The translations under genes were made by a program, and so were the position numbers. The notes under the pieces are model-generated. The model saw nothing but the letters and a program-made list of their open reading frames with translations, was not told where the DNA came from and searched no databases. A DNA stretch of 64,000 bases from Chiloscyllium plagiosum (taxonomy: Eukaryota), in the NCBI RefSeq assembly GCF_004010195.1, contig NC_057756.1, positions 6,205,094 to 6,269,093 on the forward strand, read 5' to 3'. Positions 6,566 through 61,802 of this stretch are shown piece after piece. Numbering within the stretch: the first letter of the stretch is position 1; each line of letters starts with the position of its first letter.

Positions 6566-7139
6566 ACACTCAGTGAAGAAATGTGTCAAACATTCAGTTC
6601 CCAATTTACCTTTGCTCTCAACATATGCAGAGCTCAGGCTAGAGGCACCTTGCTCGAGTGTTTCATACTGTCTGCAGGATTGGGGTCAGTGCTGAGTTTG
6701 GGAACCAGTCAGTCTCCAATGCTACATCAGAATCAACAATACAGCAATGTGGAGCATGGACTAATTCTCTCCCTCTTACACTTTAATTTCTACCTTTTTG
6801 AGATTTTGTTCTCCATGATTACCAACCCCTTTGTCTAATGCATTGGGTCTCGATGTCATTGGCCCCACCACAGCTCTGCCAAAATTATGAAAGAAAGCCT
6901 CTTTTCCAACACCTTCCAGTTCTGAAGAGTCATTTCAGACTCCTTTGTGAACTCTGTTTCCCTCTGCACACAGTTGATCTGAATTTCACCAGCTTTCTCA
7001 AAGTTTGCTGAGATTTCCAGCATCCACACTGTTTCCCTTTCAGTATCCAGTAACACCACGACCAGTCAGAATCAACGTGGCTTCTTCAATTTTTTTTAAA
7101 AAGCTTGCATTGATAACTGCGGAGAGAAATCAGAGTTAA

Positions 7140-11304: not shown

Positions 11305-11368
11305 AACACTGTAAGTAATCTAATCTAATCTAATCTAATCTAATCTAATCTAATCTAATCTAATCTAA
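11305..11368 (+). repeat. (CTAAT)n pentanucleotide tract, orphan SINE/LINE tail
   Basis: acactgtaagtaatctaatctaat... matches the HE1 3' tail. Confidence 0.85.
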
Positions 11369-11859
11369 CAATTCAAATATACTGTGGACCATCCAGAATT
11401 GCTGGGAGTGCTAGGAAGATGGTATCAGACATTGAAGACTATCCATATGATTGAGATAAGGGAATTCCGTTTGTGGCTTTTGCGATCAGAGATGCATAAA
11501 ATTAATCAGCCAAAATCAGTCCATTTGAATTAGATTTTAGGCATGAAGTGAGAGGAAAATTGATTAAAGAGAAATTGTTAAGTCAGAATTCAGAGACCAC
11601 ATATTTGGATTTTGTGTCAAATTTTAGGGAACAATTAAATAGAGCTGGGGAGTTGGTTAGACAGCATTTAGAAGTATCGCAGCATACATTGAAACAGGAA
11701 GCAGACAAGAAATCAAAAATTCACAATTTTGCTCTCTGGGGATAAAGTATTGGTATTCCTCCAGTGATAGTTGAACCTTTAAAAGCAACGTTGAGTGCAC
11801 CTTATAAAGGAAACTGAGTGAGGATCAAATTATTCTGTTGTTTGTGTTTCATTCTGTAA

Positions 11860-12166
11860 TTAGATTAGTTTACTTACAGTGTGGAAACTGGCCCTTCGGC
11901 CCAACAAGTCCACACCGACCCACCAAAGCCCAACCCATCCAGACCCATCCCCCCCTTCACCTAACACTACGGGCAATTTAGCATGGCCAATTCACCTAAG
12001 CTGCACATTTTTGGATCGGGGGAGGAAACCGGAGCACCCGGAGGAAACCTACACAGACACAGGGAGAATGTGCAAACTCCACACAGACATCGCCTGAGGC
12101 GGGAATTGAACCCAGGTCTCTGGCGCTGCGAGGCAGCAGTGTTAACCACTGTACCACCGTGCCACC
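11860..12166 (-). mobile_element. HE1-type SINE inside the 3' LTR of Gypsy A
   Basis: Full SINE body; LTR sequence resumes on both sides. Confidence 0.9.
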
Positions 12167-13139: not shown

Positions 13140-13505
13140 CTGGACTGGCACTAGAGTGGGAAATCGACACACCACCTGAGGTGACAGTACAGGAAGGTTC
13201 CTGTGCACAGATCCCATGTCGTTACCGATATCCTTCACCTCTGGCTAGTCAACATCGAGATGGAATCTGGTTTAATAACGAGAAACCGGTCACATCATCG
13301 ATAGCCTTTCACTCCCGGGATCACAGCAAAGAGTTGCCACATTTCCGACACCGGACCCGGCTCACTGGAAACCTGAACAATGGAGACTGTTCCCTGATTA
13401 TAAACAACATCAGACAGGAAGATGCAGGACCTTATTTGTTCAGAGTAGAATTTGGGGGAACGTATAAATACAGCTACTACCCTGTAACCCAGCTCTATGT
13501 TTCAG
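13140..13505 (+). CDS. Siglec-like gene, N-terminal V-set Ig (sialic-acid-binding) domain exon
   Basis: Acceptor tttctctccccag|, donor TCAG|gtcagt, 366 nt, phase 1/1. Siglec hallmarks present: N-terminal Trp, VQEGSCAQIPC, GDCSLII, DAGPYLFRVE with Arg at 13442-13444, and KYSY. Confidence 0.95.
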
Positions 13506-14990: not shown

Positions 14991-15636
14991 TGAGATTGAA
15001 ATACTGTCCATTGTTGAATGACAGAATAACTTCAGGCCAAACTTCAGACAGATGGAAAGTTAGTTGGATTTAGCTCTTTGAGTAGAAGTTAGAGTCCAGC
15101 TTTTAGGGTTGGTGAGATTGTCAGAAATACCAATATCTGGGACTTTCTCAGGTTCTCACTGAAAGAGAGATCTGTGTAGGTTCTCCTGTTGTATCATGTC
15201 TCCTTCCATTTGCAGGAGAAAAAGACTAGCCTTCTGCACATTTTTGAGATTTGTTCTCCCAGTGACACATACAGATGTCATGGAAGATAGCAACCATCTC
15301 CAGAAGAGTGGTGCTAAACACTATCAGTACCTATGTCCCATTTGTTCCAACCAAGTTTTTCCATTAATTAAAGCAATAAACGTTCCCACTAATCCCTCTT
15401 AAAATATTTACTTCTATCCTTTCCAAAGTTACTTGACATTCAGTAATGATCAGGTGAATCACAGCTCACATTACTGTTAAGCAATTCTCCATAGTTGTAG
15501 GACCCATCAACCCTTGGTAAATATTATCATATTGTCTGTTCTGGCCATGTAAATAATTCTTCATATGGTTGAATGAGCAAACTCCACTGAAACAGTTTAG
15601 CAATTTTATTATTAGATTTATCTACAAAGGCTACAG

Positions 15637-18400: not shown

Positions 18401-18829
18401 TGTTGTGAAAACAACAAACAAAACTCAGGTATCCATTCCACAGCCAAATGTGACATATATACTTTGTTGCTGCATTAATTTCTGAGAATTGTGCTCTATA
18501 AGCTTCTTTATGTCCAGTTATCATTTTGCAATGAGGCTGCCCCCCCCCCCGACCCGCAAGTCTTCAGTGTGAATGATGATCACTTTAAAGGGGCTGCAGG
18601 TCAGACCTACAAGGAAACACCAATCCTGGGAACTGGGCTGCTTCTGGATAATGTGTCTAAGGGTGGCATCACAGAATGACACGAGTTAATTGTTGCTAAA
18701 CTGCTATTAGGGTCTGTATTTCAACACCAGGTGCATTAAAAAATGTAAATTTTTAAACAAGAACTGGGATGGTAGAATTTCCAGGTAGAAATGAGAAAGG
18801 TAATCTGGAAAAACACACCAAAGAGCACC

Positions 18830-24870: not shown

Positions 24871-25164
24871 ATTTCACAGATAAACCTCTGATACACCCTG
24901 TGGAAATTATCACAGGAAAGCGTGTGAACCTAACCTGCATCTTCAATACAACGTGCAATGGAACAGCACCTGTCTTAACCTGGGCTACTCCAACTGCTGT
25001 ACATGGATCAGTCTCAATCACTGTCACTCGGCATGGGGTCACTCTGAGCTATACTTCTGTTCTGAGCCTAATACCATCACTCAGACACCAGGGACAAGCC
25101 CTCACCTGCAGAGTGAGTTATCCAACTGTGTCAACAGAGCAGACCCTCATACTGACAGTGCAAT
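24871..25164 (+). CDS. Siglec-like gene, Ig domain 2 (C2-set) exon
   Basis: tgtgtgttag| ... CAAT|gtaagt, 294 nt, phase 1/1. Reads DFTDKPLIHP...LTCIFNTTCNG...LTW...SVLSLIPSLRHQGQALTCRV. The extra Cys fits the Siglec domain 1-domain 2 disulfide. Confidence 0.93.
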
Positions 25165-26445: not shown

Positions 26446-26727
26446 ACCCACCACGGAATCTCTCAATTATTTCCCTGGATGGGATTAAAGATTCATCCAT
26501 CAATATAATTGAGGGGAATTCTGCAGTCATAATCTGCTCTGTGAAGAGCTTCCCAGTATCTAACCTGACGTGGAGACATCTTAATGTCACAATGAACAGG
26601 ACACATTCCAACAATGAGCTGTGGTTGGAGATTCCTCACATTACACCCAGGGAGACTGGAGACTATCAGTGTGTGGCAGAGAATGAACATGGAGCAATGG
26701 AGAGCTCCATAACCATCACTGTGACAT
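26446..26727 (+). CDS. Siglec-like gene, Ig domain 3 (C2/I-set) exon, type A
   Basis: ttgtttatag| ... ACAT|gtgagt, 282 nt, phase 1/1. Reads YPPRNLS...IICSVKSFPVSNLTW...TGDYQCVAENEHG. Confidence 0.92.
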
Positions 26728-28052
26728 GTGAGTTTATATAGACTGCAACATCTCTCAGATGTACACACACAATAAAACCTAGACACATACACACATTACC
26801 AGCTCTCATTCTGTGTTGAAGCAATGAAAACACCAGAGTACCCAGGCACTGTTTAGTAATCAGCACCCTACAGAGAACTGCAGATTTTTCCTTTTCTCTA
26901 TCATTTGTACTGTGTACAACAGCAATCTGATAATATTGTAACATTCAGGGAACACTGTATTCCTTTGGCTGCTGCTGTCAACCACAGTCGTACAAGAGTG
27001 CTGCTCGTTGTCAAGTTTTCAATAGATCACTAAGTGACATGGTGTGAGTACAGGGGTTCAATAAGCTTTGAGTCATTTAGACAGTTCGAGGATCACAAAA
27101 ACAAAGAGAGACTAAGAGAATGACAAACAGAGAGACTGATAGGGAAAGAGAAGTCAAAAATAGGTTCTATGCAGAACAAGCTGCTGCTAAAAAGCCAACT
27201 GAAGGCCACTCGTTGTGTGGGCTTGCAGCACAGGAAGAAATCCCTGCAGCTGTTTGACTATTCTGTACAGTTGGGACTCAGGTGAGATTCTGGAAACAAG
27301 TTGTGTGCTGTAGTTAAGACCCATCAATAGTCCAGGGAGCCAGGAGGTGTCACTAAATGTTGGAGTTAAGTTTCAGAAAAACACTTGGGATCTACTGAGG
27401 TCCCAGAATAAAGTCATGAATAGGTCAGAAAGAGATTAACCAAACTTCCACTTTCACATTAAATGGGTATGATGAGCCACAGCATCACTAACATCTGGGA
27501 TATTGCTGACACATCAGTGGGATCTGTTTTCACTTCATTTTTCATTTGGTGTGCTCTGCAGGCTCTTTAATCTTTAATTCTGGACACGAGAATATATCCG
27601 AACCATACACTGGAGACTCTACTATTGTGTTGTTTTCCATGATAAATCTAATTTCTATTCATTAAAAACTGTTGAATCTAGTGGCTTCCTTGTCGAAGTA
27701 AGTATCAGAAAATTAAATGTTGTTGACTTGCTTTCAAGCACGGCCAGCAGGTAGCTATTGACCAGGTCTGGTCTGGACTCACACCATGTCACTTAGTGAT
27801 CAAATACTATCCAGTGACTGACAAGCACCAGGGCACATGCTGGGGACATGAAAGGAACTTTCTTTTTTCGAGATAGAGAGCAGCTCCAATGCTGAGGGAA
27901 TATAATGACAGCTTACACAGGCAATCTCCATCAGAAATGTGACACAGAAACTTACACAGAGGGAAAATGAATGCAAATTCAGAGGCATCAGAGACTGAAA
28001 ATCAGCGTGATGTGCACTGTTCTGACACAATGTTATCTTCCTTCATTTTTAG

Positions 28053-28334
28053 ATGCACCACAGAATCTCTCAATTACTTCTGCTCACATAATTAAAAACT
28101 TATCGATCACTACAATTGAGGGGAATTCTGTGGTGATAATCTGCTCTGTCGAGAGCTTCCCAGCTTCCAACCTGACGTGGACCCATCTGAATGTCACAAT
28201 GAACAGAACAAGTTCCAACAATGAGCTGTGGTTGGAGATTCCTCACGTTACACCCAGGGAGACTGGAGACTATCAGTGTGTGGCAGAGAATGAACATGGA
28301 GCAGTGGAGAGCTCCATAACCATCACTGTGCAAT
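28053..28334 (+). CDS. Siglec-like gene, Ig domain 4 (C2/I-set) exon, type B
   Basis: cttcatttttag| ... CAAT|gtgagt, 282 nt, phase 1/1. Reads YAPQNLS...IICSVESFPASNLTW...TGDYQCVAENEHG. Confidence 0.92.
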
Positions 28335-31474: not shown

Positions 31475-34028
31475 AAGCATTCCCTCAGTATTGACCCTTG
31501 GATAGTGCAACACTCCCACAGTACTGACCCCCAATACAATAGCACCCCCTCAGTACTGACACTCTGACAGTGCAGCACTCCCTCAGTACTGACCCTCTGT
31601 CAGTGCAGCACTCCCTCAGTACTGACCCTCTGACACAGCAGCACTCTCTCAGTACTGACTCTCTGACAGTGCAGCACTCCCTCAGTCCTGACCCTCTGAC
31701 AGTGCAGCAATCCCTCAGTACTGACCCTCTGACACAGCAGCACTCTCTCAGTACTGACTCTCTGACAGTGCAGCACTCCCTCAGTACTGACCCTCTGACA
31801 CAGCAGCACTCTCTCAGTACTGACTCTCTGACAGTGCAGCACTCCCTCAGTACTGACCCTCTGACACAGCAGCACTCTCTCAGTACTGACTCTCTGACAG
31901 TGCAGCACTCCCTCAGTACTGACCCTCTGACACAGCAGCACTCTCTCAGTACTGACTCTCTGACAGTGCAGCACTCCCTCAGTACTGACCCTCTGACACA
32001 GCAGCACTCTCTCAGTACTGACTCTCTGACAGTGCAGCACTCCCTCAGTACTGACCCTCTGACACAGCAGCACTCTCTCAGTACTGACTCTCTGACAGTG
32101 CAGCACTCCCTCAGTACTGACCCTCTGACACAGCAGCACTCTCTCAGTACTGACTCTCTGACAGTGCAGCACTCCCTCAGTAAAGGTTTTGGAAAGAATT
32201 ATAAGAGATAGGATTTATAATCATCTAGCAAGCAATAATTTGATTTCAGATAGTCAACATGTTTTTGTCAAGGTCGTGTCTCACAAACCTTATTGAGTTT
32301 TTTGAGAAGGTGACCAAGCATGTAGATGAGGGTAGGGCAGTTGATGTGGTATACATGGACTTCAGTAAAGCCTCTGATAAGATTCTACATGGTAGGCTGT
32401 TGGATAAAATGCAGAGGCATGGAATTGAGGGTGATTTAGCAGTTTGGATTAGAAACTTGCTTTCTGAAAGAAGGCAGCGAGTGGTGTTGATGGAAAATAT
32501 TCAGTCTGGAGTCTGATTACTAGTGGTGTGCCACAAGGATCTGTTTTGGGACCACAGCTGTTCATTATTTTTATAAATGACTTAGACGCAGGCATAGGTG
32601 GATGGGTTAGTAAGTTTGCAGATGACACTAAAGTCAGTGGAGTAGTGGACAGTTTGGAAGAATATTACTGGTTGCAGGAGGACTTGGATAATCTGCAGAA
32701 TTGGGTTGAGAGGTGGCAAATGGAGCTCAATGCAGCTAAATGTGAGGTGATGCACTTTGGGAAGAATAGCAGGTAGGCAGAATACTGGGTCAATGGAAAG
32801 ATTCTTGGTAGTGTGGATGTGCAAAGGGATCTTGGAGTCCATGTGCATAGATCCCTGTAAGTTGCCACCCGAGCCGGGAATATCATGTTGCAACTAGTGC
32901 TGCCACACTAGGAATATTGTGTACAGCTCTGGTCACCCCATTACAGGAAGGATGTAGAAGCATTGGAAAAGGTGCAGAGGAGATTTACCAGGATGTTGCC
33001 TGGTCTGGAGGGAAGGTCTTATGAGGAAAGGCTGAAAGACTTGGGTCTGTTCTCATTGGAAAGAAGAAGGTTAAGAGGGGATTTGCTAGACACATACAAG
33101 ATGATCAGAGGATTAGGTAGGGTAGACAGTAGAAGTCTTTTTCCTAGAATGATGATGTCAGCTTGTAATTTGCAAAACTACAAATTGAGTGGTGATAGAT
33201 TTAAGACAGATGTCAGAGACAGGTTGTTTACTCAGAGAGTGGTAAGGGCATGGAATGCCTTACCTGCCTTTAGGGGCATTTAAACAATCCTTGGATAAGC
33301 ACATGGATGATAATGGGATAGTGTAGGGAGATGAGCTGAGAATAGTTCACAGGTCGGCGCAACATTGAGGGCTGAAGGGCCTGTTCTGCGCTGTATTTCT
33401 GTTTTATGTTCTAAAACTCCATTTCATGCACAAAGGTGGATAATTCCAAAACTGCAGGGTGTACATGTGGGGTTCTACACCACAATACTTTGCAATGCAA
33501 ATTCTTGGAAACCAGATGGAAATGATGTGCATTTGAAAGGTTTTGTGGGTCTTGTTTTCTGAAAAGTTGAATTAACTCTGCACATTCCCCGATGAGCCTT
33601 CTCACTATATAGGACTGAAGTTAGGGGTAGGTTCTTCACTCAGCGTGTCGTAAGTTCATGGAATGCCCTGCCTGTAGCAGTGGTGGACTCTCCCTCTTTA
33701 TGGGCATTTAAGCGGGCATTGGATAGGTATATGGAGGATAGTGGGTTAGTATAGGTTAGGTGGGCTTGGATCGGCGCAACATCGAGGGCCAAAGGGCTGT
33801 ACTGCGCTGTATTCTTCTATGTTCTATGTTCTATGTTCTATGTTCTAACTCCCTCAGTGCTGACCCTCTGACAGTGCAGCACTCCCTCAGTGCTGACCGT
33901 CTGACAGTGCAGCACTCCCTCAGTGCTGACCCTCTGACAGTGCAGCAGTCCCTCAGTACTGACCCTCTAATAGTGCAGCACTCCCTCAGTGCTGACCCTC
34001 TGACAGTGCAGCACTCCCTCAGTACTGA
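31475..34028 (+). repeat. 33-bp minisatellite array (31475-32181 and 33848-34028) split by CR1 insertions
   Basis: 11-codon periodicity in both strand ORFs; perfect 66-bp dimer units at about 31700-32181. Confidence 0.95.
32182..33847 (+). mobile_element. CR1/HER1 LINE fragments (32182-33413 and a second 3' end about 33600-33847)
   Basis: RT motifs PQGSVLGP and SKFADDTK; (tatgttc)n tail. Confidence 0.9.
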
Positions 34029-34158
34029 ATTGAAGTGTCTGCTATGGTTACATGATGTGTGGAGGAGGAAACCGCGCTGCTATCTCACCTTTCACATTGT
34101 CGGGGTCTAGGATGTTTTTGACTATCATTGTAATGAACTGATCATTATTTGCTTTTAG

Positions 34159-34440
34159 ACCCACCAAGGAATCTCTCAATTATTTCCCTGGATGGGATTA
34201 ATGATTCATCCATCAATATAATTGAGGGGAATTCTGCAGTCATAATCTGCTCTGTTGAGAGCTGCCCAGTGTCTAACCTGACGTGGAGATATCTTAATGT
34301 CACAATGAACAGGACACGTTCCAACAATGAGCTGTGGTTGGAGATTCCTCACATTATACCCAGGGAGACTGGAGACTATCAGTGTGTGGCAGAGAATGAA
34401 CATGGAGCAGTGGAGAGCTCCATAACCATCACTGTGACAT
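34159..34440 (+). CDS. Siglec-like gene, Ig domain 5 (C2/I-set) exon, type A duplicate
   Basis: tttgcttttag| ... ACAT|gtgagt, 282 nt, phase 1/1. Differs from 26446-26727 at 10 nt by manual comparison. Confidence 0.9.
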
Positions 34441-35250: not shown

Positions 35251-35750
35251 NNNNNNNNNNNNNNNNNNNNNNNNNNNNNNNNNNNNNNNNNNNNNNNNNN
35301 NNNNNNNNNNNNNNNNNNNNNNNNNNNNNNNNNNNNNNNNNNNNNNNNNNNNNNNNNNNNNNNNNNNNNNNNNNNNNNNNNNNNNNNNNNNNNNNNNNNN
35401 NNNNNNNNNNNNNNNNNNNNNNNNNNNNNNNNNNNNNNNNNNNNNNNNNNNNNNNNNNNNNNNNNNNNNNNNNNNNNNNNNNNNNNNNNNNNNNNNNNNN
35501 NNNNNNNNNNNNNNNNNNNNNNNNNNNNNNNNNNNNNNNNNNNNNNNNNNNNNNNNNNNNNNNNNNNNNNNNNNNNNNNNNNNNNNNNNNNNNNNNNNNN
35601 NNNNNNNNNNNNNNNNNNNNNNNNNNNNNNNNNNNNNNNNNNNNNNNNNNNNNNNNNNNNNNNNNNNNNNNNNNNNNNNNNNNNNNNNNNNNNNNNNNNN
35701 NNNNNNNNNNNNNNNNNNNNNNNNNNNNNNNNNNNNNNNNNNNNNNNNNN
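35251..35750. other. Assembly gap of exactly 500 N (possibly a placeholder of unknown size)
   Basis: N run flanked by different CR1 copies. Other gaps: 3687-4239, 19677-20490, 42798-42818, 49200-49334, 55993-56148. Confidence 0.95.
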
Positions 35751-42545: not shown

Positions 42546-43183
42546 TCGAGAGCATTTTGCTGGATAGTACAGCAGGTCAGGCAGCATGCGATGAGCAGGA
42601 GAATTGACATTTCGGGCATAATCTCTTCATCAGGAATGAGGCTTGTGGGCTGGGGCTGAGAGATAAATGAGAGGAGGGTGGGGTGGGCAGCTGAGAAAGG
42701 AAAGATGGATGAAGGTGACAGAGAAGGTGATAGATCAGAGGGGGGAGTGATGGACAGGTCTGGAGGGCAGTGCCAAGTTGGAGGCTTTGGCTGGGATNNN
42801 NNNNNNNNNNNNNNNNNNGGGGGGAGTGATGGACAGGTCTGGAGGGCAGTGCCAAGTTGGAGGCTTTGGACTGGGATAATGTGGGGGGAGGGAAAATGAG
42901 GAAGCTGTTGAAATCCACATTTATCCTGTGTGGTTGCAGGATCCCAATATGAGACGGTTCTTCCTCCAGGCGTCAGGTGATAATGGTTTGGTGGTGGAGG
43001 AGGCCCAGGACCTGCATGTCCTTGACGGAGTGGGAGGGGGAGTTGAAGTGTTCAGCCACGAGAAGGGCTTATGCCCAAAACATTGATTCTCCTGTTCCTT
43101 GGATGCTGCCTCACCTGCTGTGCTTTCCCAGCAACACACTCTCAACTCTGATCTCCAGCATCTGCAGTCCTCACTTTCTCCTG
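42546..43183 (-). mobile_element. Penelope-like 3' fragment with inverted terminal repeat
   Basis: Same GIY-YIG tail (AEHFNSPSH) and terminal repeat as 450-1395. Confidence 0.78.
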
Positions 43184-43699
43184 GAGTGGTAAACTTGATA
43201 AGCAGCTGCTGGAGAGGACAGCAGTGATTAGTGACAGGTCAGCATTTCCATTACTTTCTCTGATAATTAAACTGCTGCAATTCATTAGTTCATTCAGTTG
43301 GCTCGATGGCTGATTTTCCAACAGGGAGTGGGTTCAATACCCACACTACTTGAATGTACCATGAAGGACTCTACTTCTCATCCGTCCACTCCCCTGGAAC
43401 TATGGTGACCTGTAAGCTAAATTAACATCATTCAGTTTCCTTCGAATGAATGATCAGCTCTATGTCCTGGTGAGACTGCAGTGATGGTAGTGGGAATGTT
43501 TGGAGTCAGGAACAATGTACTTTGTATCCATTAAATGAAGTAATTAATCTAAGGGAAGTCATAGAAGATAAGCTTGAACCAGTGATATGTTCGTCCTGTT
43601 CTACCCGGGAAATCATGGACACTTCAAATGTCCCTGGTGCCCAAGAAGGCTTCAAAGCATGACAGACATGTGGAATTTTTTGAAAAAGCACATGGCCGG

Positions 43700-44450
43700 T
43701 GCATTATAAACATGAATAAATGTGAAGCTTTATTGTATTGTGTGAAGATCAGGAAGTCAGAGTATTATCTAAATGTTTGCAAAAAGATTAAGATCTGGGT
43801 ACCTTGGTCCACCAGTCAGTTCAATGTAAACGGACAGACACAGAAGGCAACTGGCATATTGGCCTTTATTGCAAGAGGATTTGAGTTTAGAAATAGGGAT
43901 GTCTTACTGCAGCAATACAGGGTCTTGGTAAAACCAGAATTGGAGAATTGTGTACAGTTTTGTTCTGCTACCTGAGATCTGAAACCTGTGATCAAGGCAG
44001 TGTAGCGAGGTTTTACTCGACTGATACTGGGGAGGCTAAGACTGCTGTATGAGAGATTCATTTGACTGGGCCAGTATTCAGTATATTTTGAATGAATAAG
44101 AAGGTATCTGAAATTCTAATCGGGCTGTACAGGATAGGTGCAGGGAGGAGGTTTCCCTCATTTAGGAGCTTGGAATCAATGGGCCAGAAATTTAGGATTG
44201 CGATGAAGAAACAATTCTTCGTGCAGAGGATGGTCAAAGCTATGGAATTCACTACCAGAGTGAACATTGGATAACTGAGTATATTCAAGAAAGAGACTGA
44301 AAGAGAGTGTTTAAAGGCCTCACAGGGTATAGACGGAAAGTAGGAAGAAGGTTTTGAGATGCAGGGTCAGCCACATACGTATTGAATTAGAGAGTAGGTT
44401 CGAAGATAAAAATTGCTAACTCCTAATTCTGCCTTATTTTGTATTTCTAT
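43700..44450 (+). mobile_element. Old CR1 3' fragment
   Basis: LAFIARGFEFRNRDVLLQQYRVLVKPELENCVQF. Confidence 0.75.
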
Positions 44451-45156
44451 GTTATTAGGAAAACTTAGATTAACTGAAGAACTGGGCTGGTCTGGTAACC
44501 TGAATGATTTTCAACTATTGGAAATCAGTCCCTCTACTTGGAAGCTAAAGAAACTTTGCGAATTGCTGCCCGACTTCAGTTCCTTTAACTTCACACAAAA
44601 TGAGTATTGAAGTTTTGAACATTTTGTTTATCAAATTAAAAGTTAAACTGAATGGCCTCTTGCTTCTGTTCCAGGCTTGAAATTGCTGGTACCCTTTGAT
44701 GAACAAGTTGTGCTCCCTTGTCTCAGAATAAAATTACTGTCTCAAACGACAGGATCCAATAACTCTTGAACTGTTAAATATAATTTGGTATTTGTTGGAG
44801 CTCTCTCTTGCCACTTTAGCTGCCATGTTTCTTGTGTCACACTTTCAGCACTGCCATGTATATTCATGATCAGTGAAGTTACCTTGACACCTTATTTAGG
44901 TGGGAAATATATCAGGTCAGATCATTCTGTTCCTCAGAACATTGGGCGATCTATCATGTTAAATCATCAGCGTCTGCATTGACTGGAACAGGAGAATGAA
45001 TTGCTACTAGTTTATACACTTGAAATGGAAAGAAATAGAATTGGTCTTGAAACAGTCACAGTTAGGCTGTCATATTCAGCTTCTTGTTTTAATCTTTCTT
45101 TGATGCCATCCTTGAATTAAGTGTTCATCATTTACTTTCTCAATTATTGATTGCAG

Positions 45157-45296
45157 CCTGGGGTGACTGGTGCAACTGGTCCACCACAATCTGTTGGCGG
45201 GGATCCTGTGAATCAAACGAGATAGTTTTCTATCTCCCCTGCCCGCAAAGGTTCATGTGTTGCAGACTGTTAGAGTGGAAGGTTCTCCGTCGATAA
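45157..45296 (+). CDS. Terminal exon encoding a beta-defensin-like peptide: xWGDWCNWSTTICWRGSCESNEIVFYLPCPQRFMCCRLLEWKVLRR*
   Basis: Acceptor tttactttctcaattattgattgcag|, phase-1 reading, Cys spacing C-x6-C-x4-C-x10-C-x5-CC, stop TAA at 45294-45296, AATAAA about 120 nt downstream. There is no in-frame ATG between the upstream stop (45090-45092) and the acceptor, so it must be spliced. Confidence 0.8.
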
Positions 45297-45417
45297 GAAC
45301 TGCCAGATTCTCTCATTTCACCCTGATTACAAAAAACAATTCCTCAAATTTGATTCTTGAGGTTCTTGATCACACATTTCTAAATTGCTGCTTTCCATGT
45401 GATATTCTGAATTCAGA

Positions 45418-45423
45418 AATAAA
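45418..45423 (+). terminator. Polyadenylation signal of the defensin-like terminal exon
   Basis: AATAAA followed by T/GT-rich sequence (ttctttgtatcagtgttgtatttct). A second AATAAA lies at 45545-45550. Confidence 0.55.
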
Positions 45424-45966
45424 AATTGATTCTTTGTATCAGTGTTGTATTTCTCAATAAGATCTGTGGGTCCATAGAATCTATTCTGCAGTTGAAATGA
45501 GCCTGGAATACAATGCCATAAATGATGTGAAGAGTCCTCAGTAAAATAAAAATGTGAATGATCCACTCATTAACAGACTATCATAAAAGCAGATAGCCAA
45601 GTGCCTGCCTTGCAACTGAACTGCATGAGCTATATAAATACTGTAGCGAAAGGAGCAAGCTGGAGGTGAAGAATCGTCCAGCAGGTAACTCACCTCCTGA
45701 CTCCCCAAAGCCTGTCCAACAGCTTCTAGGTACAAGGTAGGAGTGTGATGGTTTACTCCCCATTTAACTGGACGAATGCAACTCCAACAACACTCAGGAG
45801 GCTTGACGCCATCTCGGAGAAAGGAACCAGCAACTCCCTCCAATGATGGGAAGTTGTATATATGTATAAACTACAAGACAATTGCAGAAATTTCCCAAGA
45901 CAGATTAATTAGCAACTGCTAATCCCACAACTACTACCATTGAGGACAAGGGTAGCAGATACACAA

Positions 45967-49494: not shown

Positions 49495-50992
49495 ACGGTG
49501 TACAAGAGGTCCCAGCTGATTTAAACACTTGCTGATCAGTGTCCCAGGTCTTTAAATAAAAAGTAAATGGGGCAATTTGATTAATTTCAGTTACTTGTGG
49601 TTGGTTGAATTAAAAGTGAGGGGAATGGCTCTTAACATTGCTAAACAGTTCTAGGGCTTGAAGATGCTTCCCAATTTTGCCAAGAAATTTTAGAAAGACA
49701 GAGGAAGGGCATACTTTTAGAATTAGCAAATAGGTTGAAATTGGATTTAACCAGGGACAAAAGGAAGGCTGAAATTATAATGGGTTGGTCAAGCACTTAG
49801 GTATATCAGAAAACAAACAAGTGTAGTAGTTAGAAAAACTTAAATTGCAATTTAGGCAAATAGAGCTAGTAGATAAAGAAAGGGAAATAAGAGCCATGTT
49901 CGAGGAGTTGAAAGAGAGAGAGAAAATAAAGAGAGGGTTAGAAAAAAAGGGAGAGAAGATGCTTAGCTGAGCAAAAAGAACGAGAGAGGGAGAATCTGAA
50001 CTTCAGAAATGGCAAATTAGTCAGGAAAGTCGTGTTAACAGGATGGAGATTAAGACAGAGGGTAGTGATGTATACAAATATATAAAAACATTGTTGCATT
50101 TTGATGAGTAAGATATCAAAGCCTTCTTTATTTCATTTGAAAGATTTGCTAGGCAAATTGAGTGGCCAGAAGCTAGTTCAGATTAAGTTGGCAGGCAGAG
50201 CTAGTGAGATATTAGCAGTGCTGTTCAGATGAGGAGTGAAGGGGTATGCAGATGTCAAAAAGGCTATTTTGAGCGCTTATGAATTAGTACCAGAAGCATA
50301 TAAACAGAGGGTCAGAAACAAAAAAGAACCAGGTCAGACTTAGGCTGACTTCGAAAGAATTAAGCATAGTAATTTTGACAGTTGGATGTGGGCCTTAAAA
50401 ATAGATAAAACCGATAAGGCTCTAAGAGAGATTATTCTGCTGAAGGATTTTAAAAACTCACTTCGAGAGATAAGAATTCATGTGGATAAACAGAAAATTC
50501 AAGAAGTGAGAAGTGCAGCAGAGATGGCAGATGATTGTGCATTGGTGCATAGAATGAAATTTAGATTCCAACAGGAATTTCATCCTGTGAAGGATAGAAA
50601 TTGTGAGAAGGGGAGATTTTTCACTACAAAACAAAAGGTCAAGCACACTTGAAATGGCTTACCACAAGTGAAAAAGGAAACCCAGATAGGTGAAAGTGAA
50701 CAGCCTCAGGTGCTTTCACTGTAATGGAATCGGACACAGAAAATTACAGTGCCAGTGGTTAAAGAAGGACACTGGGAAAAGAAGAGTGCAGGGGAATTGA
50801 GTTAGCGCCTGATCTCGATAAAGACTTCACCACTGTGTGTAAAGGAAGAACGGAGGGGAGGGGAAGGGAAAGAAGTTACAATTTTGAGAGATCCGGGAGG
50901 TAATAGCAGGAGATGCACTTTGTTACCCGAGAGTGGAAATTTGTGGAACAGATGGACAGAAATTTAAAGATCCCCTGTGTAAAATCAGGTTG

Positions 50993-51556
50993 GAGTGCCA
51001 AAGTAACAGTGGGAGTGATTGACAGCGTGTCAGTTCCAGGGATATAGTTTGTTCTTGGGAATAATTTAGCAGGATCCATGGTGGGATCCTGGTCAAAAGA
51101 AGCCAAAGGAAGACCAGGGAACTGAGGAATTCAAAGAAAAATACCCTTTTTTTTTTACAGATAGTGTAGCAACAACATCCTCCTGTCATAAGTCACAGCA
51201 AGAAGCAAAAAATTAAGGAGAAAGGTGAAGGATTAGACTAGATTACTTACAGTGTGAAAACAGGCCCTTCGGCCGGAGTGCCAAAGTAACAGTGGGAGTG
51301 ATTGACAGCGTGTCAATTCCAGGGATACAGTTTGTTCTTGGGAATAATTTAGCAGGATCCATGGTGGGATCCTGGTCAAAAGAAGCCAAAGGAAGACCAG
51401 GGAACTGAGGAATTCAAAGAAAAATACCCTTTTTTTTTACAGATAGTGTAGCAACAAGATCCTCCTGTCATAAGTCACAGCAAGAAGCAAAAAAATTAAG
51501 GAGAAAGATAAAGGATTAGACTAGATTACTTCCAGTGTGAAAACAGGCCCTTCGGC
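50993..51556. repeat. Tandem duplication of about 280 bp spanning Gypsy sequence and a SINE tail
   Basis: ggagtgccaaagtaacagtggg...aaacaggcccttcggcc occurs twice. Confidence 0.9.
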
Positions 51557-51814
51557 CCAACAAGTCCACACAAACCCTCTGAACAGCAACCCATCCCCCT
51601 ACATTTACCCCTTCACCTAACATTACGGGCAATTTAGCACAGCCAATTCACCTAACTTGCACATCTTTGGACTGTGGGAAGAAACCGGAGAAAACCCACG
51701 CAGACACGGGGAGAATGTGCAAACTGCACACAGATGGCTGCCCGAGGTGGGAATTGAACGCAGGTCTCTGGCGCTGTGAGGCAATAGTGCTAAGCACTGA
51801 GCCACCGTGCCACC
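51515..51814 (-). mobile_element. HE1-type SINE
   Basis: SINE body and tail. Confidence 0.9.
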
Positions 51815-51954
51815 CACTAAGAAGTTGTGGTTCAATAAGCTGACACCCTGCTTGATGTAATGGTGCAGGAAAAACTTGAAGAGGTATCAGGTCAGGCAGA
51901 AGTGTTTAGTTCTGAAAAGCTAATGGAATTACAACAGAAAGACAAGACAATCGA

Positions 51955-53110
51955 AATAGAAAGGTACAGCGCAGAACAGGCCCTTTGGCCCACAATATTG
52001 TTCTGAGGATTAATCCTAATGTAAACTAAAAAAACTTAACCTACGCACCCCTCAATTCACTGCTATCCATGTGCATGCCCCTGCTCACTCTGCTTCCACC
52101 ACCACCACACTGGCAACGCATTCCATGCATTCACAGCTCTCTGCATAAAGAACCTTCCTCTGACGTCCCCTCTATACCTTTCTCCTAATATCTGAAAACT
52201 ATGACCCCTTGTGGCAGTCAATCCTACCCTGGGGAAAAGTCTCTAACTATTGACGCTATCCTCTCATTATCTTGTATACCTCGACCAGGTCACCTCTTTT
52301 CCTCCTTCTCTCCAGAGAGAAAAGTCCAAGCTTAGTCAACTTATCTTCATAAGGCAAGCCCTCCAGTCCAGGCAACATCCTGGTAAACCTTCTTTTCATC
52401 CTCTCCAAAGCCTCCGTATCTTTCCTATAGTAGGACAACCAGAACCGGACAGAATATTCTGAGTGTGGTCTCACCAGAGACTTGCAGGGCTGCAGCAAAA
52501 CCTCGTGGCTCTTAAACTCGATCCCTTGTTAATGAAAGTCAAAACACCATATGCTTTCTTAACAACCTTATCTACTTGGGTGGCAACTTTGAGGGAAATA
52601 TGTACTTGAACACCCAGATCCCTCTGCTCCTCCACACAGCCAAGAATCCTGTCCTTAATCTTATATTCAGCATTTGAGTTTGACTTTCCAAAATGCATTA
52701 CTTTGCGTTTATCCAGGTTGAACTCCATTTGCCATTTCTCAGCCCAGCTCCTGTCTATGTTGCGCTGCAGCCTACAAGAGCCCTCAATACTATCAACGGC
52801 ACCTCCAACCTTTGTGGCATCTGCAAATTTACTAACCCACCCTTCAACCTCCCCATCCAAGTCATTTATAAAAACTACAAAGAACAGAGGCCCAAGAACA
52901 GAGCCCTGCAGGACCCCACTCAACACTGACTTGCAGGCAGAATTCTTTCCATCTACAACCACTCTCTGCTTTCTGTCAGCCAACAAATTCTGAATCCAAA
53001 TAGCCAAATCTCCCTGTATCCCATACTTCCTGACTTTATGAATGAGCCTATCATAGGGAACTTTATCAAAAGCCTTGCTGAAGTCCACCAACACCACATC
53101 CACTGCTCTA
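51955..53110 (-). mobile_element. CR1/HER1 LINE nested in Gypsy C, followed by a (CA)n/(TG)n microsatellite to about 53160
   Basis: ORF 52471-53169 with [17 protein letters not shown] and NDLD motifs. Confidence 0.92.
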
Positions 53111-55294
53111 CACACACACACACACACACATATATTTATATATGTGTGTGTGTGTGCGTGTAGATGCATACTTAGAAAATGAATGAGAATGTATTCCTGA
53201 TTGTTATTATGTTAAAAAAAACGAAGATGAAAATAGAAACTACAGCAGGTTAGTGCAGAGGAGAAATGGGCAAAATGTACCAGATTGTGTTGCCAGTATA
53301 CAATCGGCAATTGTGTACTGATTATTATTGGAAGTATTATGTGGAGCACATGAATTACCATAAGAAGGTTACCTCGGCAGTGAGGAAAACTCGGGCAAAG
53401 GCACAAAAGTACTTCTATTAGGCTGGACTGCACAGGGATGTGGTTAAACTGGCAAGTAAGCCATAGATTGTAATAAAACCAGCACCTTTACTGCCAATTC
53501 CTGCATTCCACGCGGGTTATGATTGATTGTGTAGCCCCCTCCCTAAAAGTAAAAGTGGGAACTAGTACTTGCTAAACATAATGGATATGTCTCACAGACC
53601 TCCAGAGGCAATTCCATTATGGGGCATTAAGACAAAAAGGCTGGTGGAGGAGTTGATAGCTTTCTTTCCCCGCTATTAGCTACCCAGAGAGATTAGTCAG
53701 ACCAAGGGTCTAATTTTACTGCCAGGCTGTTTATAAGGAAGCTTAGGCAAACAGCAATTTAAAGGAAGTGTGCACTATGCTGAATCCCAGGGAGCTTTGG
53801 AAATGTGATAGCAGACCCCGAAGACTATGTTAAAAGCATACTGTCATGATTACTCAAATGATTGGGATAAAGGTATCCCATTTGTATTGTCTGTCATTAC
53901 AGATGCCCCAAACAAATCTACTGAGTTTACTCCCTTTGAGGTAATATTCGATATGACGTGAGAGGGCCTTTGAAACTAATTTTAGGAAAATTGATAGGAC
54001 CGAAGTCGGAGATTTCACACTTGGATTATTTATGTGAGGTGAGGAAGAGATTAAATTGGGTAGGCTAGTAAACTAAACATCACTTGAAGAGAGTACAGCA
54101 CAGAATGAAGAAGGTGGCAGATAAAAACTCTAAATTTCAGATATTTTCCTGTGGAGATGACAGACTACTGTTGTTCCCAGTGGTAGCAGATCCCTTGAAT
54201 GCTAGTTTTTGTGGTCCCTCTCAAATTAAGAAAAAGGTTGCCAGGTAAGCTATCTGGTAAAGACACCAAATAGAAAAACTTGTGTCAGGTATGTCATGTA
54301 AATGTGTTGAAATGTTACTATAATAGAGACAGGGAACTGGAGAAACAGGTGTTAGTTATTGCCACGCAAATTAAGGAATCAAATCCAGATGTTGTGGTGT
54401 ATGATGTGCCTCAAAGTACATTAAATAATGAGGAAGTCATTGAGGAGTGGGATAGGTTTGTGAACTATCTGTCGCAGGAGCAAAGGACTCAGTTGAAAAG
54501 TTTGTTGCAACAGTCTGAGGACATATGCAGGAATAAGATGGACAGGACTGATATTTTTGTGCATGAGGTGGAAGTAGGGAATTCTTTTCCAATAAAACAA
54601 CACCCTTTCAAATCCTTTCAAAGCCACACAGGTCCAGAAGGAAGGGGATGCAATGCTCAATGAAGATATCATTGAACCGAGTCAGAGTGAGTGGAGTTCA
54701 CCATTCATGTTAGTTTCCAAATCTGATGTGACTCAACAATTTTGTGAGGACTATAAGAAGGTCAAAACTGAATTCCTATCCAATACCAAGATTGGACGAC
54801 TGGAAAGAATTTTTTTCAAGCCACTTACATCATGAAGTTGGACTTACTGCGTGGTTATTGACAGGTATCTTTATCAGAGAAAATGCAGGAAGCTTCTGCA
54901 TTTGTAACCCCAAATGGGCTCTCTCAATTCAAAGTGATGTCCTTTTGAACGAAGAATGCACCAGCTACATTCTAAAGACTCATGAACAGAGTTGTGGCTG
55001 GATTAACAAACTTTGCAGTCTATCTGGATGATGAAGTGATACTTAATGAGTACAGTTGGCAGAGCTCTTTGAATGACTACGAGAATCAAAACTGGTAATA
55101 AACTTAACAAAACAGAATTTACGAAGTCAGAGGTGACATTGTTGGGACATAACATCTGTCATGGAAGGTTGCCTCCAAGGAACGTGAAGACAAAGGCCAT
55201 TGACGAATTTCCATGACCATCCTCAAAGAAAAAGGTGCTTTGATTTTTGGGACTAAGCGGATTCTACCAGAAAGATGTGCAAACTTCAGTACTA

Positions 55295-56960
55295 GACAAT
55301 AGACAATAGACAATAGACAATAGGTGCAGGAGTAGGCCATTCAGCCCTTCGAGCCTGCACTGCCATTCAATATGATCATGGCTGATCATTCCTAATCAGT
55401 ATCCTCTTCCTGCCTTATCTCCATAACCCCGATTCCACTATCTTTGAGAGCTCTATCCAACTCTTTCTTAAATGAATCCAGAGAGTGGGCCTCCACTGCC
55501 CTCTGGGGCAGAACATTCCACAAAGCTACCACTCTCTGGGTGAAGAAGTTTCTCCTCATCTCTGTCCTAAATGGTCTACCCCATATTTTTAAGCTGTGTC
55601 CTCTGGTTCGGCACTCACCCATCAGTGGAAAGATGTTTCCTACTGCCAGAGGGTCCAATCCTTTCATACAAGTCCAGTCGCTTCAGTCTTTCAGTGTAAG
55701 GTAATCCTGCCATTCCAGGAATTGACCTCGTGAACCTACGCTACACTCCCTCAATAGCCAGAATGTCTTTCCTCAAATTTGGAGACCAGAACTGCACACA
55801 ATACTCCAGGTGTGGTCTCACCAGGGCCCTGTACAGCTGCACAAGAACCTCTTTGCTTCTATACTCAATCACTCTTGTTATGAAGGCCAGCATGCTATTA
55901 GCCTTCTTCACTACCCGCTGTACCTGCATGCTTACCTTCATTGACTGATGTACAAGAACACCTAGATCTCGTTGTACTGCCCCTTTACCTAANNNNNNNN
56001 NNNNNNNNNNNNNNNNNNNNNNNNNNNNNNNNNNNNNNNNNNNNNNNNNNNNNNNNNNNNNNNNNNNNNNNNNNNNNNNNNNNNNNNNNNNNNNNNNNNN
56101 NNNNNNNNNNNNNNNNNNNNNNNNNNNNNNNNNNNNNNNNNNNNNNNNTCAGCCAACCAACTTTCAATCCAAGTTAGTACTTTGCCCCCAATACCATGCG
56201 CCCTAATTTTATTCACTAACCTCCTGTGTGGGACTTTATCAAAAGCTTTCTGAAAGTCTAGGTACACTACATCTCCCTCGTCCAACTTTAGAGTTACATC
56301 CTCAAAAAATTTAAGAAGATTAGTCAAGCATGATTTCTCCTTCATAAATCCATGCTGACTCTGTCCTATCCTGTTACTACTATCCAGATGTGCCGTAATT
56401 TCATCCTTTATAGTAGACTCCAGCATCTTTCCCACCACTGAGGTCAGACTAACTGGTCTATAATTTCCTGCTTTCTCTCGCCCACCTTTCTTAAAAAGTG
56501 GTATAACATTAGCTACCCTCCAATCCTCAGGAACCAACCCCGAATTTATTGAACTCTGGAAAATAATCACCAAGCATCCACGATTTCCCGAGCCACCTCC
56601 TTCAGTACCCTGGGATGCAGACCATCAAGCCCCGGAGACTTATCAACCTTCAGACCTAACAGTCTCTCCAACACCAAATCCTGGCAAATATAAATTCCCT
56701 TAAGTTCCGGTCCTTCAGCCACTGTTACCTCAGGGAGATTGCTTGTGTCTTCCCCAGTGAACACAGATCTGAAGTACCCATTTAATTCCTCTGCCATTTC
56801 TTTGTACCTAGTAATATATTCCCCTGTTTCTGTCTTCAAGGGCCCAATTTTGGTCCTAACCATTTTTTTGCCTTGCACATACCTATCCTCCTTAATATTC
56901 TTAGCCAGTTTACCTTCGTACCTCATTTTTCCTCTGCGTCTTTCCTTCTTAGTAATCCTG
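55295..56960 (-). mobile_element. CR1 LINE nested in the RT of Gypsy C
   Basis: ORFs 55989-56573 and 56567-56926 carry CR1 RT motifs; (tagacaa)n tail at 55292-55322. Confidence 0.92.
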
Positions 56961-58339
56961 TGGTGGTATCACTAACAGATGTACGAAAAAAGAAAAATTT
57001 TGGTGGACAGAAAAATTCCAGGAGGCATTTGAGAATTTAGAAGCAGTAATAGCCACTGCACCAGTTTTAGCTACACCAAAATTTTTGAAACCCTTCAAAA
57101 TTGCAATCGATGTTAGCAACATAGAAGTTGAGCTGTCCTGCTACAGCAAGATGATGGAACTGAGTGGCCAGTTGGCTACTTTTCAAAGAAATTCAACACC
57201 CACCGGAGAAAATACTTTACCATCAAAAAAGGATTATTAAGTTTAGTACTGGCCTTACAACATTTTAATGGTTATGTGACAAGCAATGTGCCAAGAAATG
57301 TATGTACACTGACCACAATCCTCTTACAGACTTGGAAAGATTTAAAGACAAAAATATGAAACTATTTCATTGTAATCTTATGTTAGAGACATTGTGCATG
57401 TTATGGGTCATAGAAAATGTAATAGCAGATAGGTTATCGTGGATTTAAAAGGAAAAAGTGGAGATAATATTTGACAGATTCCAATGTTATATATGTGTGC
57501 AGAAATTAAAATGAAAAGTATAACTTAAATTAATGACCTATGTATTTCATTGAAATGGGATTAAGAATTAAAAGCAAAATCTTTTCATTGTGATGGTTCA
57601 TTTTTTTCTTTAAGGGGGTGAGGGGTTATGAAGTTGAAGGCACGTACTGTACCTTTAAGAGATAATGAATGGTCTTCTGAACTGAGAGTTAACAAGCACC
57701 TCTGTATGTGACTAGGTGGCAGTCCCAGAGTGTACTGGAAATTAAAAATATGTAACATTTGCCTGTGAAATGCACAACTGAGGTTTGGTTGTTGTTTTGA
57801 CAATTCAAATTTAACCAGTTTAAATTATGCTCCAGGATTCTAAAACTCAACTGAGTTTGAATTTATTCTTTTGCCAATATCAAACCAATGAGATGATCTG
57901 ATATTGAGGGGGATATAAAATGTGGACCTTTTGAAAATTGGTCAGAGAGAGCAATTGCCATCAAGATAGATAAGCCTGGAGATCTAATATCTTGCTTTCC
58001 AAGAAATTAGGAACCACTCCCTATTAAAGGTACCTTTTCATATGAAGCATCCTCGCAATAAGATAAGACTATAATCCAGGGAGATCTTCAGCCAGAAGAA
58101 GACAGACATAGAAGATGACAGCGGCTGTATGGTTTTGAAATTAAGTTGATGTAATTTTAATAAGTGTCTTATTGTTATAGAGTTAGAGGCAAATAATAAG
58201 CAGTTAAGAGAAAGGGGAGGGGCTTAGAGTTAAGAACAGTTGTTTTCTAATGTTCCCTTTTAGAGTTAAAACATAAATTGATGTTACTTTCTTCAAATAG
58301 TGGGAATTGGGAGTTCTCTGTCACTCATATTTTAAACAT

Positions 58340-58552: not shown

Positions 58553-61500
58553 ATTTTAAACAAATTATGTGGCGAGGTGAACTTTTCTCGGGTTTAAGTG
58601 ACAGAGGGGCTGACCTCCATGTCACAATAAAAGTTCTCCCTGTTATCATTTATTCCAGTTTTCTTTGAGCTTCTTCATGCCACACTTGAACAAATGAAGC
58701 CTTGATGTCAAGGGCAGTGACTCACACCTCACTTCTAGAAATCAGTTATTTTGTCGGAGGGTTACTGTGGACTTGTTGGGCCAAATGGCCTGATTCCACA
58801 CTGTTGGGATTCTATGAAGTATCCTGGTGAACTCCAAGTGTAGTATTAGTGTGTAGGTTATTGCCAATGTTATGAACCAGACCAAAAGTCTCAAACCATG
58901 TTATTGGATATAGCCTAAACCCTAATGTTTTCTTATTCTAATTGCAAGTGCCAGGCATTGTACACCAGAAGCAATTGGATTTGTTTAACTGCCAGGCTTT
59001 AAGCACATTTTATTCATACACTATCTCATTAAAATACAACAAGGGAAAGAAGAATTGGAATAACTCAACTCTACTGGAAAACTTAACACAATAATACATC
59101 ATTTAACTACTAAACAACAACTATTCCAATATAGTACTATCCAATAAATATAATCTTGGCAAGGCAAATACAGCGAAATAGATTATTTCACATGCAATTC
59201 TAGAGAACTCAAGCTTTTCGCTGTAGCAAAGACAGATGGAACAGCTTACACAATCGTAACAGCTACTGAAAGCTAAAACCATAAACTCCCGGTTTTCTGG
59301 AAAGTTGCCTCACTCACTCAGGTTGCTTCTAGCGTTCCAAACATTTAAATAAAAACCAAAGCCTCACAAGTTGTTTACTTTATTGAGCTGAAACAGACTG
59401 ATCGTTACCTCTGTCTCAACTGCTGTTGATAAAAATAGGACAAAATACACCTTTTAAAGCCACATCTCCCTAAAAAAAAACATCAATATAAAAAGTTCGC
59501 TTCATTTTTAAAAATCTTTAGCCTCACGCTATTAATACACTACAATACATGTACAATACATTGGCATTAAGCATGCAAACATTCAGTAATTTGGTCCATG
59601 TCAGTTTGTTTCGTTACCCCAATATCGAATGCCTGTCTTCCTTTAAAGATGCAACAACGCTTTTACAATTATGTTCGCTCGTCCTGCCACGTGTATACTT
59701 TTCAAACTGAATGGCTGCAATTAGCTCCATTTAAAACTTCTGGTATTTTCATCCTTAAATTTTTCCAAAGATTTTAAGAGGTTATGATCAGTATATATAT
59801 ATTCTTTTTAAGCCAGATTGAATATAAATTTTGAAATATTGCAATGCCAACACCAAACTTTAGGTCTCCTCATCCGTACAATACTTCTGTTGATGAATAT
59901 TCAATTTTCTGGAAAAAATTCTATCCTCTTGTTGTTTTCTTGCAAGAGTATAGCACTGACACCACTCACATCAATAGCTACTTTGAATGGCTTTGAATAA
60001 TTAAGTATGGCTAACATTTTGGCAGCGAATAACAGAGCCTTCTGACATTCCTCTGTGCACTGAAATTTTCTGAACTTCTTCAACAGGTCTTTGATGCCAC
60101 CATTCTAAAGCTCCTTGCGTTTACAGAATGGTATGCAGTAAATTTGAATTGTGATAGTCCGAAGCTATCTAAAACTTTCTTGAATAGTTTGATGTAAAAT
60201 CTGACCCTTGATCCAGTTGTCCATATTTGGTAAAGCATTTTGAGTAATTCTTCTACAATCTTCTTAAGCCAAAGCCGTGATTCTGAGTAATGGAATGGCC
60301 TCTGGAAATTTAGTAGACACATCCATTATGGTTAACGAATACTGATTCCCACTTTTTATTTTAGGTAGGGGTCCAACACAATCAATTAAGACTCATGTGA
60401 AAGGTTCCTCATATGCAGGAATGGTATTAAAGGTTTATCACTGTTGGAGAATTTCCAATTACCTGATGCGCATGACAAGTTCGCCAAAAGTCAATCACAT
60501 CCTTATGCAGTCCAGGCCAATTATTTCTATATTTTGGTTTGAGTTTTTGTTACTCCCAAATGACCTCTGCCATTAATTCAGGTGCTACCCACAGCACCTT
60601 CTTTCAATTACCCACCGATAATACAACATGATGGACTTCTGCCCATTTCTCATCCTCCTGATTCTGTGATGGTCTCCATTTCATCAAGACTTTATTTTTA
60701 AAAATAGTAATGTTTTGAGATACACTCAGAATCTTCAGCTGTGTATGTTGTTTGATACAATTGATTTAGTTTTTCATCTTTCCTTTGTAACTCAGCTACT
60801 TTCTCTGAACTAACAATATCCACTTTGTCCTCCAGCTGTTCTTAATTTTTCTCAACCATTTAATGAAACTTGGTCTGTTAAATGTGCTTCAACTTCCTTA
60901 TCTTTACTCCTTGATTTCTCCTTTTGCTTCAATCTGTGGCTTTGTGACCTTGTCAACACACAGTTGGAAAAATCCCAGGATATCAGTTGCCTGATTTTCT
61001 ACTGGCTTTTCAACTACAGTAGACATCACCTTCAACTATGGTCCAGCTATCATCATTACCAAGGATGACATGTATTACCAGAACTAAGAATTTCTCTAAT
61101 ACACAGATCACCACTTTTCACTGGACACTCCAAACTCACTTTATATAATGGAACGCTGCTCTTCTCACCATGAATTCCACAAATTGCCACCTTTTCTGGC
61201 AATACTACTTCCAATGTACATTATTCATCATTTATCACCTTCAAAGATTGACTTGCTCCAGCATTTCTTAAACCTGCTCCTCCTGACATATATGAGTAAA
61301 CCTTACCCTTGTAGGTAAATTCTTTAAAGAAATCTGGCACTTTCTTCTAAACCAAGCCCTGATTAACTTGTACATTCTGGTGCAGCTTTCTAACTTCCTC
61401 TGTGCTTTCCTTTACCACTTCAACAAACCTCACTGGTTTATGCTGTTTTCCCATATCCGTCTTCCCAATGCTTTTTCAAAACCACCCACACTGTGACTTC

Positions 61501-61802
61501 ATGTGGCCTACTTTATTACAGTGAAAACACCTGAACTTTTCCACTTATCTTTTTCCCCAATGGGGTTCCATTTTACCCTGTGATAAACTATCTTGATAAT
61601 CTTCAAAGAGATCTCATTTTCCATTACTACCCGAGGATTTCTCTATTCCTCAGTGATAAACTATCTTGATCATCTTCAAAGAGATCTCCTTTTCCATTAC
61701 TACCCGAGGATTTCTCTATTCCTCAATTCTATCTCTCACAGATTGAAGTCGATGATTAGATTAGATTCTCTTAGATTTTGGAAAAGTGCAGTAGTAACAA
61801 GG

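Follow-up and report, generated by a model that had tools for sequence, protein, structure and literature searches.

A short exon in the genome of the cartilaginous fish Chiloscyllium plagiosum raises two questions: whether it encodes a peptide of the beta-defensin type, and whether it belongs to a gene that is still in use. The exon begins at position 45157 of the window, the stretch of 64,000 nucleotides that was analysed (NCBI RefSeq assembly GCF_004010195.1, contig NC_057756.1, positions 6,205,094 to 6,269,093 of the forward strand). A first-pass annotation, made from the letters alone, had described it as a beta-defensin-like terminal exon, opened by a good phase-1 acceptor and followed by AATAAA. 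The features concerned are as follows:

45137..45156, + strand: splice acceptor, phase 1, with a pyrimidine stretch and AG at 45155-45156 (sequence)
45157..45296, + strand: coding part of the terminal exon, with a split codon, 45 codons and TAA
45171..45263, + strand: six-cysteine core of beta-defensin type, C-x6-C-x4-C-x10-C-x5-CC
45297..45452, + strand: likely 3' UTR, with AATAAA at 45418-45423 and a GT/T-rich element 3' of the signal

The acceptor sequence, ...ttgattgcag, ends at 45156 and is followed by two bases (45157-58) that complete a split codon. The open frame then runs from 45159 to 45293, giving 45 residues by translation before a TAA stop at 45294-96, and the other two frames of the + strand are closed at the exon. 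The proposed order of a phase-1 acceptor (AG at 45155-56), a frame open to its stop, and AATAAA (45418-23) is thus confirmed, and the 3' UTR is delimited by a putative cleavage site. The acceptor, however, is moderate rather than good (8 pyrimidines in 14 bases), and the best support for it appears to be its conserved position among paralogues. The intervals between the cysteines (x6, x4, x10 and x5) lie within the beta-defensin consensus C-X4-8-C-X3-5-C-X9-13-C-X4-7-CC, as given in the available part of PMC515299. The peptide carries five Trp, six Lys and Arg versus four Asp and Glu (net charge +2, pI 8.3), a basic tail, and Thr in place of the usual Gly two residues before Cys2, a composition that had been read correctly at the outset; the Glu four residues after Cys3 and the F-x-CC motif, with Phe two residues before Cys5, are likewise present. 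A six-cysteine motif of such spacing occurs once in the six frames of the window. When the window was simulated 300 times with a second-order Markov model, the motif turned up three times, in one case preceded by an AG at this offset; the probability that motif and acceptor arise by chance is low.

Comparison of profiles carries the likeness to defensins further. The profile of the window's family (A1), compared with the PDB, best matches human beta-defensin 106 (hBD-6, PDB 2lwl; E 0.0016), with spheniscin-2 at E 0.21. A second profile (A2) brings together five further exons of defensin type from this genome; three of these were scanned with Pfam, and two of them pass the PF00711 cut-off. A1 and A2 align to each other without gaps (probability 96.9, E 1.6e-10). 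When the window is searched with A2, the exon frame is found at E 1.6e-4 and the next match at 0.95, and because just 2 of 500 shuffles of the frame with fixed cysteines score as high, the likeness of the exon to A2 exceeds what the cysteines alone would provide. An AlphaFold model of the peptide (pLDDT 77) places strands at residues 10-13, 21-24 and 33-37 and ends in a C-terminal helix; the structure-prediction check suggested earlier returns a predicted fold that is three-stranded and defensin-like. In a VIA structure comparison with this model, 29 of 32 rows were defensins or small defensin-like peptides as judged by eye, at low scores (Z at most 3.8, the top row being a sea-anemone peptide) and with alpha-defensins among them; hBD-6 occupied the second row (Z 3.7, rmsd 3.3, 40 residues aligned), and hBD-2 reached Z 3.3 (rmsd 2.4, 36 aligned). 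Foldseek gave no significant match for the model, the best being an alpha-defensin at E 0.66, and the top clusters of the ESM Atlas were beta-defensins at 0.75-0.79, which serves as a lead only.

Family models and single-sequence searches return little. The Pfam check turned out negative, with neither PF00711 nor PF13841 detecting the peptide: the exon peptide falls into none of the Pfam families, and no defensin model matches any of 12 aligned family members, two of which match Ragweed_pollen (E 0.024), a result taken as cysteine noise. A search of the PDB with the single sequence returned fibrillin alone (E 0.58). Protein database searches with the single peptide gave no match, either at near lengths or at longer ones; with alignment A1, at near lengths, they gave one candidate and none at E<=1. 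As these searches need shared 5-residue words, the blank does not establish the peptide as unannotated. The sole match (P0001, E 6e-4) in a search of 1.84 billion representatives is a repetitive protein of 228 aa without the six-cysteine pattern, and was rejected. The reading as a beta-defensin-like terminal exon is upheld by spacing, acceptor offset, the profile match to human beta-defensin 106, the match between A1 and A2 and the predicted fold. Judged by its sequence, exon 45157 is a real, divergent six-cysteine exon of beta-defensin type, and its cysteine spacing, predicted fold, phase-1 intron and net cationic charge are features of the broad family.

The exon had initially been presented as encoding a real, probably unannotated cartilaginous-fish peptide of the defensin fold; its product is here a putative peptide, and the copy is one of a large family rather than a lone find. 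A search of the same genome with the peptide yields at least 76 matches at E<=10, all 76 of which were fetched and translated. They comprise the window copy, two copies on C50 (B1 and B2), six of subfamily C, 52 labelled D (one of which is a chance match), eight of subfamily A, and seven unassigned matches that are mostly due to chance. The exact stop-free motif is present in 24 of the 76: the window copy, both B copies, three of C and 18 of D. A further 11 D copies, judged by eye, differ solely by a seventh Cys that replaces Trp, two are truncated by a gap or by the end of a contig, and stops or lost cysteines mark the remaining ones. All 24 exact-motif copies carry an AG four codons plus 2 nt before Cys1, an acceptor offset also found in other beta-defensin-type exons (L101, L103, L104 and L107). 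Since subfamilies C and D consist of recent duplicates, the 24 copies represent, from their sequences, five independent lineages (window, B1, B2, C and D) rather than 24 independent copies.

Peptides of the other lineages are 32-50% identical to that of the window, with the six cysteines and Thr10 invariant and an EWKVL tail in the window, B2 and C lineages; in DNA, the window copy resembles lineages B and C in the exon alone. Comparison with B and C gives it a dN/dS of 0.52-0.67, and comparison with D one of 0.27-0.55, values that are biased by the selection of intact copies and that come with dS near saturation. When D copies are compared with one another, pN/pS is about 0.86, intact copies being no exception, so that much of the D burst is probably neutral; given this ratio and the 52 of 76 matches that lack the exact motif, an intact appearance is no proof of use. 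Such a family would evolve by birth and death, with a few old intact lineages and bursts of segmental copies that often decay.

As to genomic setting, subfamily D amounts to about 50 near-identical copies on C8 (18.8-19.5 Mb), C7, C48 and many unplaced contigs, and many of them are broken. At C8 19.5 Mb the copies lie in satellite DNA next to C2H2 zinc-finger genes of the opposite strand, a setting that suggests spread by segmental duplication; the DNA common to D copies upstream consists of satellite and LINE sequence, joined at one locus by zinc-finger sequence of the opposite strand. Two intact paralogues lie 20 kb apart on C50 (7582754-7604268; L002, L003 and L068), the first of which has the strongest claim to be a complete gene within the window's subfamily. 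Canonical beta-defensin exons with Gly before Cys2 were found by searches with the Pfam models and with a paralogue (C49 at 5.6-6.0 Mb, C101976, C81822, C74664, C94706 and C88717; L092-L107); the five that were aligned do so without gaps, and four of them have the acceptor offset (L099 has no AG there).

Whether this particular copy is intact and used can be approached through its closest DNA relatives, the eight copies of subfamily A (C99468, C97944, C89853, C59801, C28 at 40.43 Mb and others), of which those compared are 84-95% alike. The likeness to the window copy extends upstream of the exon:

44143..45136, + strand: likely intron DNA common to decayed subfamily A copies (62-72%; DNA comparison)

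The exon had been placed in a non-repeat island, but the island is not unique, since about 1.1 kb upstream together with the exon is 62-72% alike in at least eight decayed copies. Intron distance between these copies and that of the window is 0.34-0.41. Subfamily A copies have lost Cys2, Cys5 and Cys6 in common, so that the subfamily multiplied after the motif was lost, and the loss is about what neutral decay predicts. Over the divergence that cost subfamily A three cysteines, the window copy kept all six, the AG, the frame and the AATAAA; the rough neutral chance of such retention is 0.002-0.025, a figure biased by the picking of intact copies.

Two sequencing runs of one study (X1 and X2) cover the region with reads that are DNA-like, as their contigs extend over the intron. 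These contigs show 17 differences from the window in about 1000 bases and keep the frame and six cysteines. Their only coding indel is an in-frame deletion of 3 nt (X1), an insertion of 5 nt is found in both runs at 45302, directly past the stop, and a change at 45158 affects the third place of the split codon. Inside the 45 codons there are 3-4 coding differences per run, all of which alter the protein. Contig depth is 65 and 151 over the exon and about 9-10 and 3-19 over certain pieces nearby, and across 44043-45700 window-identical pieces of low depth lie beside divergent ones of high depth. Several near-identical copies may have been collapsed in the assembly there; as depth is no measure of copy number, these figures are given no weight. 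Two single-cell runs (X5 and X6, from one sample, of which about 2% and 6% were read) were compared with 42830-45700, where X5 falls on repeats only and X6 gives nothing; they are given no weight.

The search for a leader exon bears most directly on the state of the gene. Hydrophobicity scans, paralogue comparison and examination of low-copy islands all failed to reveal a signal-peptide leader between 34441 and 45157. Rejected candidates include 34665 (half Siglec intron, half SINE), 43071 and 12878 (both SINE-derived), 42028 (which stops ahead of any donor) and 44653 (not hydrophobic). A convincing leader was seen in one of 19 copies scanned, C50:7584124, where a signal-peptide-like ATG exon lies 1.36 kb upstream with possible, moderate phase-1 donors. 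The DNA of this leader has no second match in the genome, and tblastx among 14 copies reveals no upstream coding exon in common besides the six-cysteine exon. Upstream of the window exon, the assembly is interrupted:

35251..35750, no strand: run of exactly 500 N, 9.4 kb upstream of the exon, which separates the Siglec-like exons from the defensin exon

Gaps of exactly 500 account for 9 of the 63 internal gaps in the fetched loci (overlapping loci not being de-duplicated), all of them on chromosome-scale contigs, and the next commonest size occurs three times. Since gaps of this exact size recur, and on chromosome-scale contigs only, the run is likely a scaffold join of undefined size, one that may hide both a defensin leader and Siglec membrane exons; the missing leader is explicable on these grounds. 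The same failure to find a leader would be expected if the exon were an orphan or recently dead, that is, a segmental duplicate that took with it the terminal exon and some 1.1 kb of the intron before it, without leader or promoter, and that is intact-looking and unexpressed. This reading, which we consider unlikely, also draws on the end of the likeness to subfamily A near 44143 and the start of the high-depth X1/X2 contigs near 44043, as well as on the many broken relatives and the near-neutral evolution of D. It has to contend with the retention of six cysteines, AG, frame and AATAAA in the window copy while subfamily A lost three cysteines, and with the likely join upstream, which can itself account for the absent leader.

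On the far side of the join, the window holds the following exons:

13140..13505, + strand: Siglec/CD22-like V-set exon, phase 1-1 (Pfam V-set and Ig_CD22; Siglec-5 at E 2e-15, MAG, CD33; splice sites)
24880-25164, 26446-26727, 28053-28334 and 34159-34440, + strand: four Siglec-like C2/I-set Ig exons, phase 1-1 (Pfam, splice sites)

Three of the C2-type exons are recent duplicates, 80-92% identical, and the V-set exon encodes an F-R-V-E motif at what we take to be the place of the sialic-acid-binding Arg. A possible leader of this Siglec-like gene lies near 6580-6675, and the Siglec cluster as a whole spans C47 5.65-8.43 Mb. In Siglec paralogues, the transmembrane exon lies a few kb past the last Ig exon; such an exon has no match in the window, in the 10 kb upstream or in the 30 kb downstream. 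On the unplaced contig C93627, an Ig exon 92-96% identical to that of the window is followed by a transmembrane exon, and this contig may be the missing piece of the window's Siglec-like gene. Three unplaced contigs, C93627, C76749 and C70502 (L062-L064), have Ig exons 90-98% identical to those of the window, C70502 being 98% identical to window 26485-27730, and all three may be missing or alternative pieces of the gene. Elsewhere, the window contains decayed elements resembling LTR retrotransposons (about 8700-11900, 15600-18500, 49600-57400 and 59000-61700, with gag/pol-like remnants recognized by eye), many LINE and SINE fragments, and a satellite of 33-base units at 31480-32180 and 33850-34030.

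The absence of a Siglec transmembrane exon from the window and the 30 kb beyond, together with that of a defensin leader, evokes the idea of a single gene, in which the last Ig exon (end at 34440, phase 1) would splice onto 45157, on the same strand and in compatible phase, to produce a secreted sialic-acid-binding protein of five Ig domains with a defensin tail. If true, this would be a lectin with a membrane-attacking defensin tail, joining targeting and killing in one protein; we know of no such Siglec-defensin chimera in any vertebrate. The proposal is very improbable, as the 500-N join intervenes between the two exons and nowhere else is a defensin match close to a Siglec match. Specifically, none of the other defensin matches in the list of 76 is on C47, home of most Siglec matches, and besides C47 just C28 in the C2 and V-set match lists has a defensin match, 4.8 Mb apart. 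Paralogous Siglecs, including that of unplaced contig C93627, also have a normal transmembrane exon.

The reading that we favour, and regard as probable, is that the exon at 45157 is the last exon of a working, divergent two-exon beta-defensin gene that encodes a secreted host-defence peptide. A short signal-peptide exon, like that of C50:7584124, would splice in phase 1 onto 45157 and would be missing from the assembly, its probable place being within the 500-N join or on the far side of it. The precursor would be secreted and its signal trimmed to release a mature peptide of about 45 residues, which is predicted to form a sheet of three strands, followed by a short C-terminal helix and held, as the spacing suggests, by Cys1-5, Cys2-4 and Cys3-6 bonds. 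Given its five Trp, its basic tail and a net charge of only +2, the peptide would then most likely bind and disturb microbial membranes by way of aromatic and hydrophobic contacts and not by charge alone, and might perhaps also attract leukocytes, as teleost beta-defensins do according to the available part of PMC6795676. Each step beyond the exon itself, antimicrobial action included, is one that we infer from the family. A secreted peptide of the same fold could instead have a main role other than the killing of microbes, for instance in receptor signalling or, within the reproductive tract, in the coating of sperm. We hold this to be improbable: the profile match is weak, and a low charge does not set the peptide apart, since the cod Defb, weakly cationic at +1, is still called an antimicrobial peptide in the available part of PMC3636224.

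A large, Trp-rich subfamily that Pfam does not see would extend beta-defensins to the oldest lineage of jawed vertebrates, and would be a source of candidate peptides, possibly active at high salt. As one copy among many, that of the window carries modest weight by itself, unless the fusion to the Siglec-like gene is real. The section on antimicrobial peptides of cartilaginous fish in a 2019 review, in its available part, names transferrin, squalamine and kenojeinin only (PMC6795676), and in the available part of a paper on shark skin proteomics defensin appears in a reference only (PMC10707392). Our literature search found no paper on shark beta-defensins; most subscription journals and supplements lie outside its scope, so that a description may exist.

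Comparison with known systems places the peptide at some distance from each of them. Human beta-defensin 106, its best profile match in the PDB, has the six cysteines and the Glu after Cys3 in common with it, at about 25% identity; the window peptide differs in its five Trp, in the Thr that replaces Gly before Cys2, and in loops one residue longer between Cys2 and Cys3 and between Cys3 and Cys4. Vertebrate beta-defensins covered by PF00711 and PF13841 (hBD-1 to -4, AvBD, spheniscin-2, CpoBD13) are similar in spacing, in a three-stranded fold (predicted for the window peptide) and in a mature peptide encoded by a separate exon that follows a phase-1 intron, whereas the window's family is undetected by either Pfam model, is dispersed over many chromosomes rather than held in one cluster, and has a lower charge than most. 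The canonical exons of the same genome (C49, C101976, C81822 and C74664) have identical spacing, a gap-free alignment and the Glu four residues after Cys3, but keep the Gly before Cys2 where the window's group has an invariant Thr. Teleost beta-defensins (cod Defb, sea bass beta-defensin 1 and 2) are comparable in low positive charge, in a mature peptide of 39-45 residues and in their six cysteines, as far as the available parts of the sources describe them, and, unlike the window peptide, have conserved glycines near Cys2 and Cys4. Their genes are split into three exons, the last of which carries Cys5 and Cys6 (available part of PMC3636224), whereas the window exon and its paralogues hold all six cysteines and the stop in one exon, which is the mammalian layout. 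This single exon for the mature peptide fits the proposal, made in the available part of PMC8231796, that the ancestral gene had two exons and that teleosts gained their third one later.
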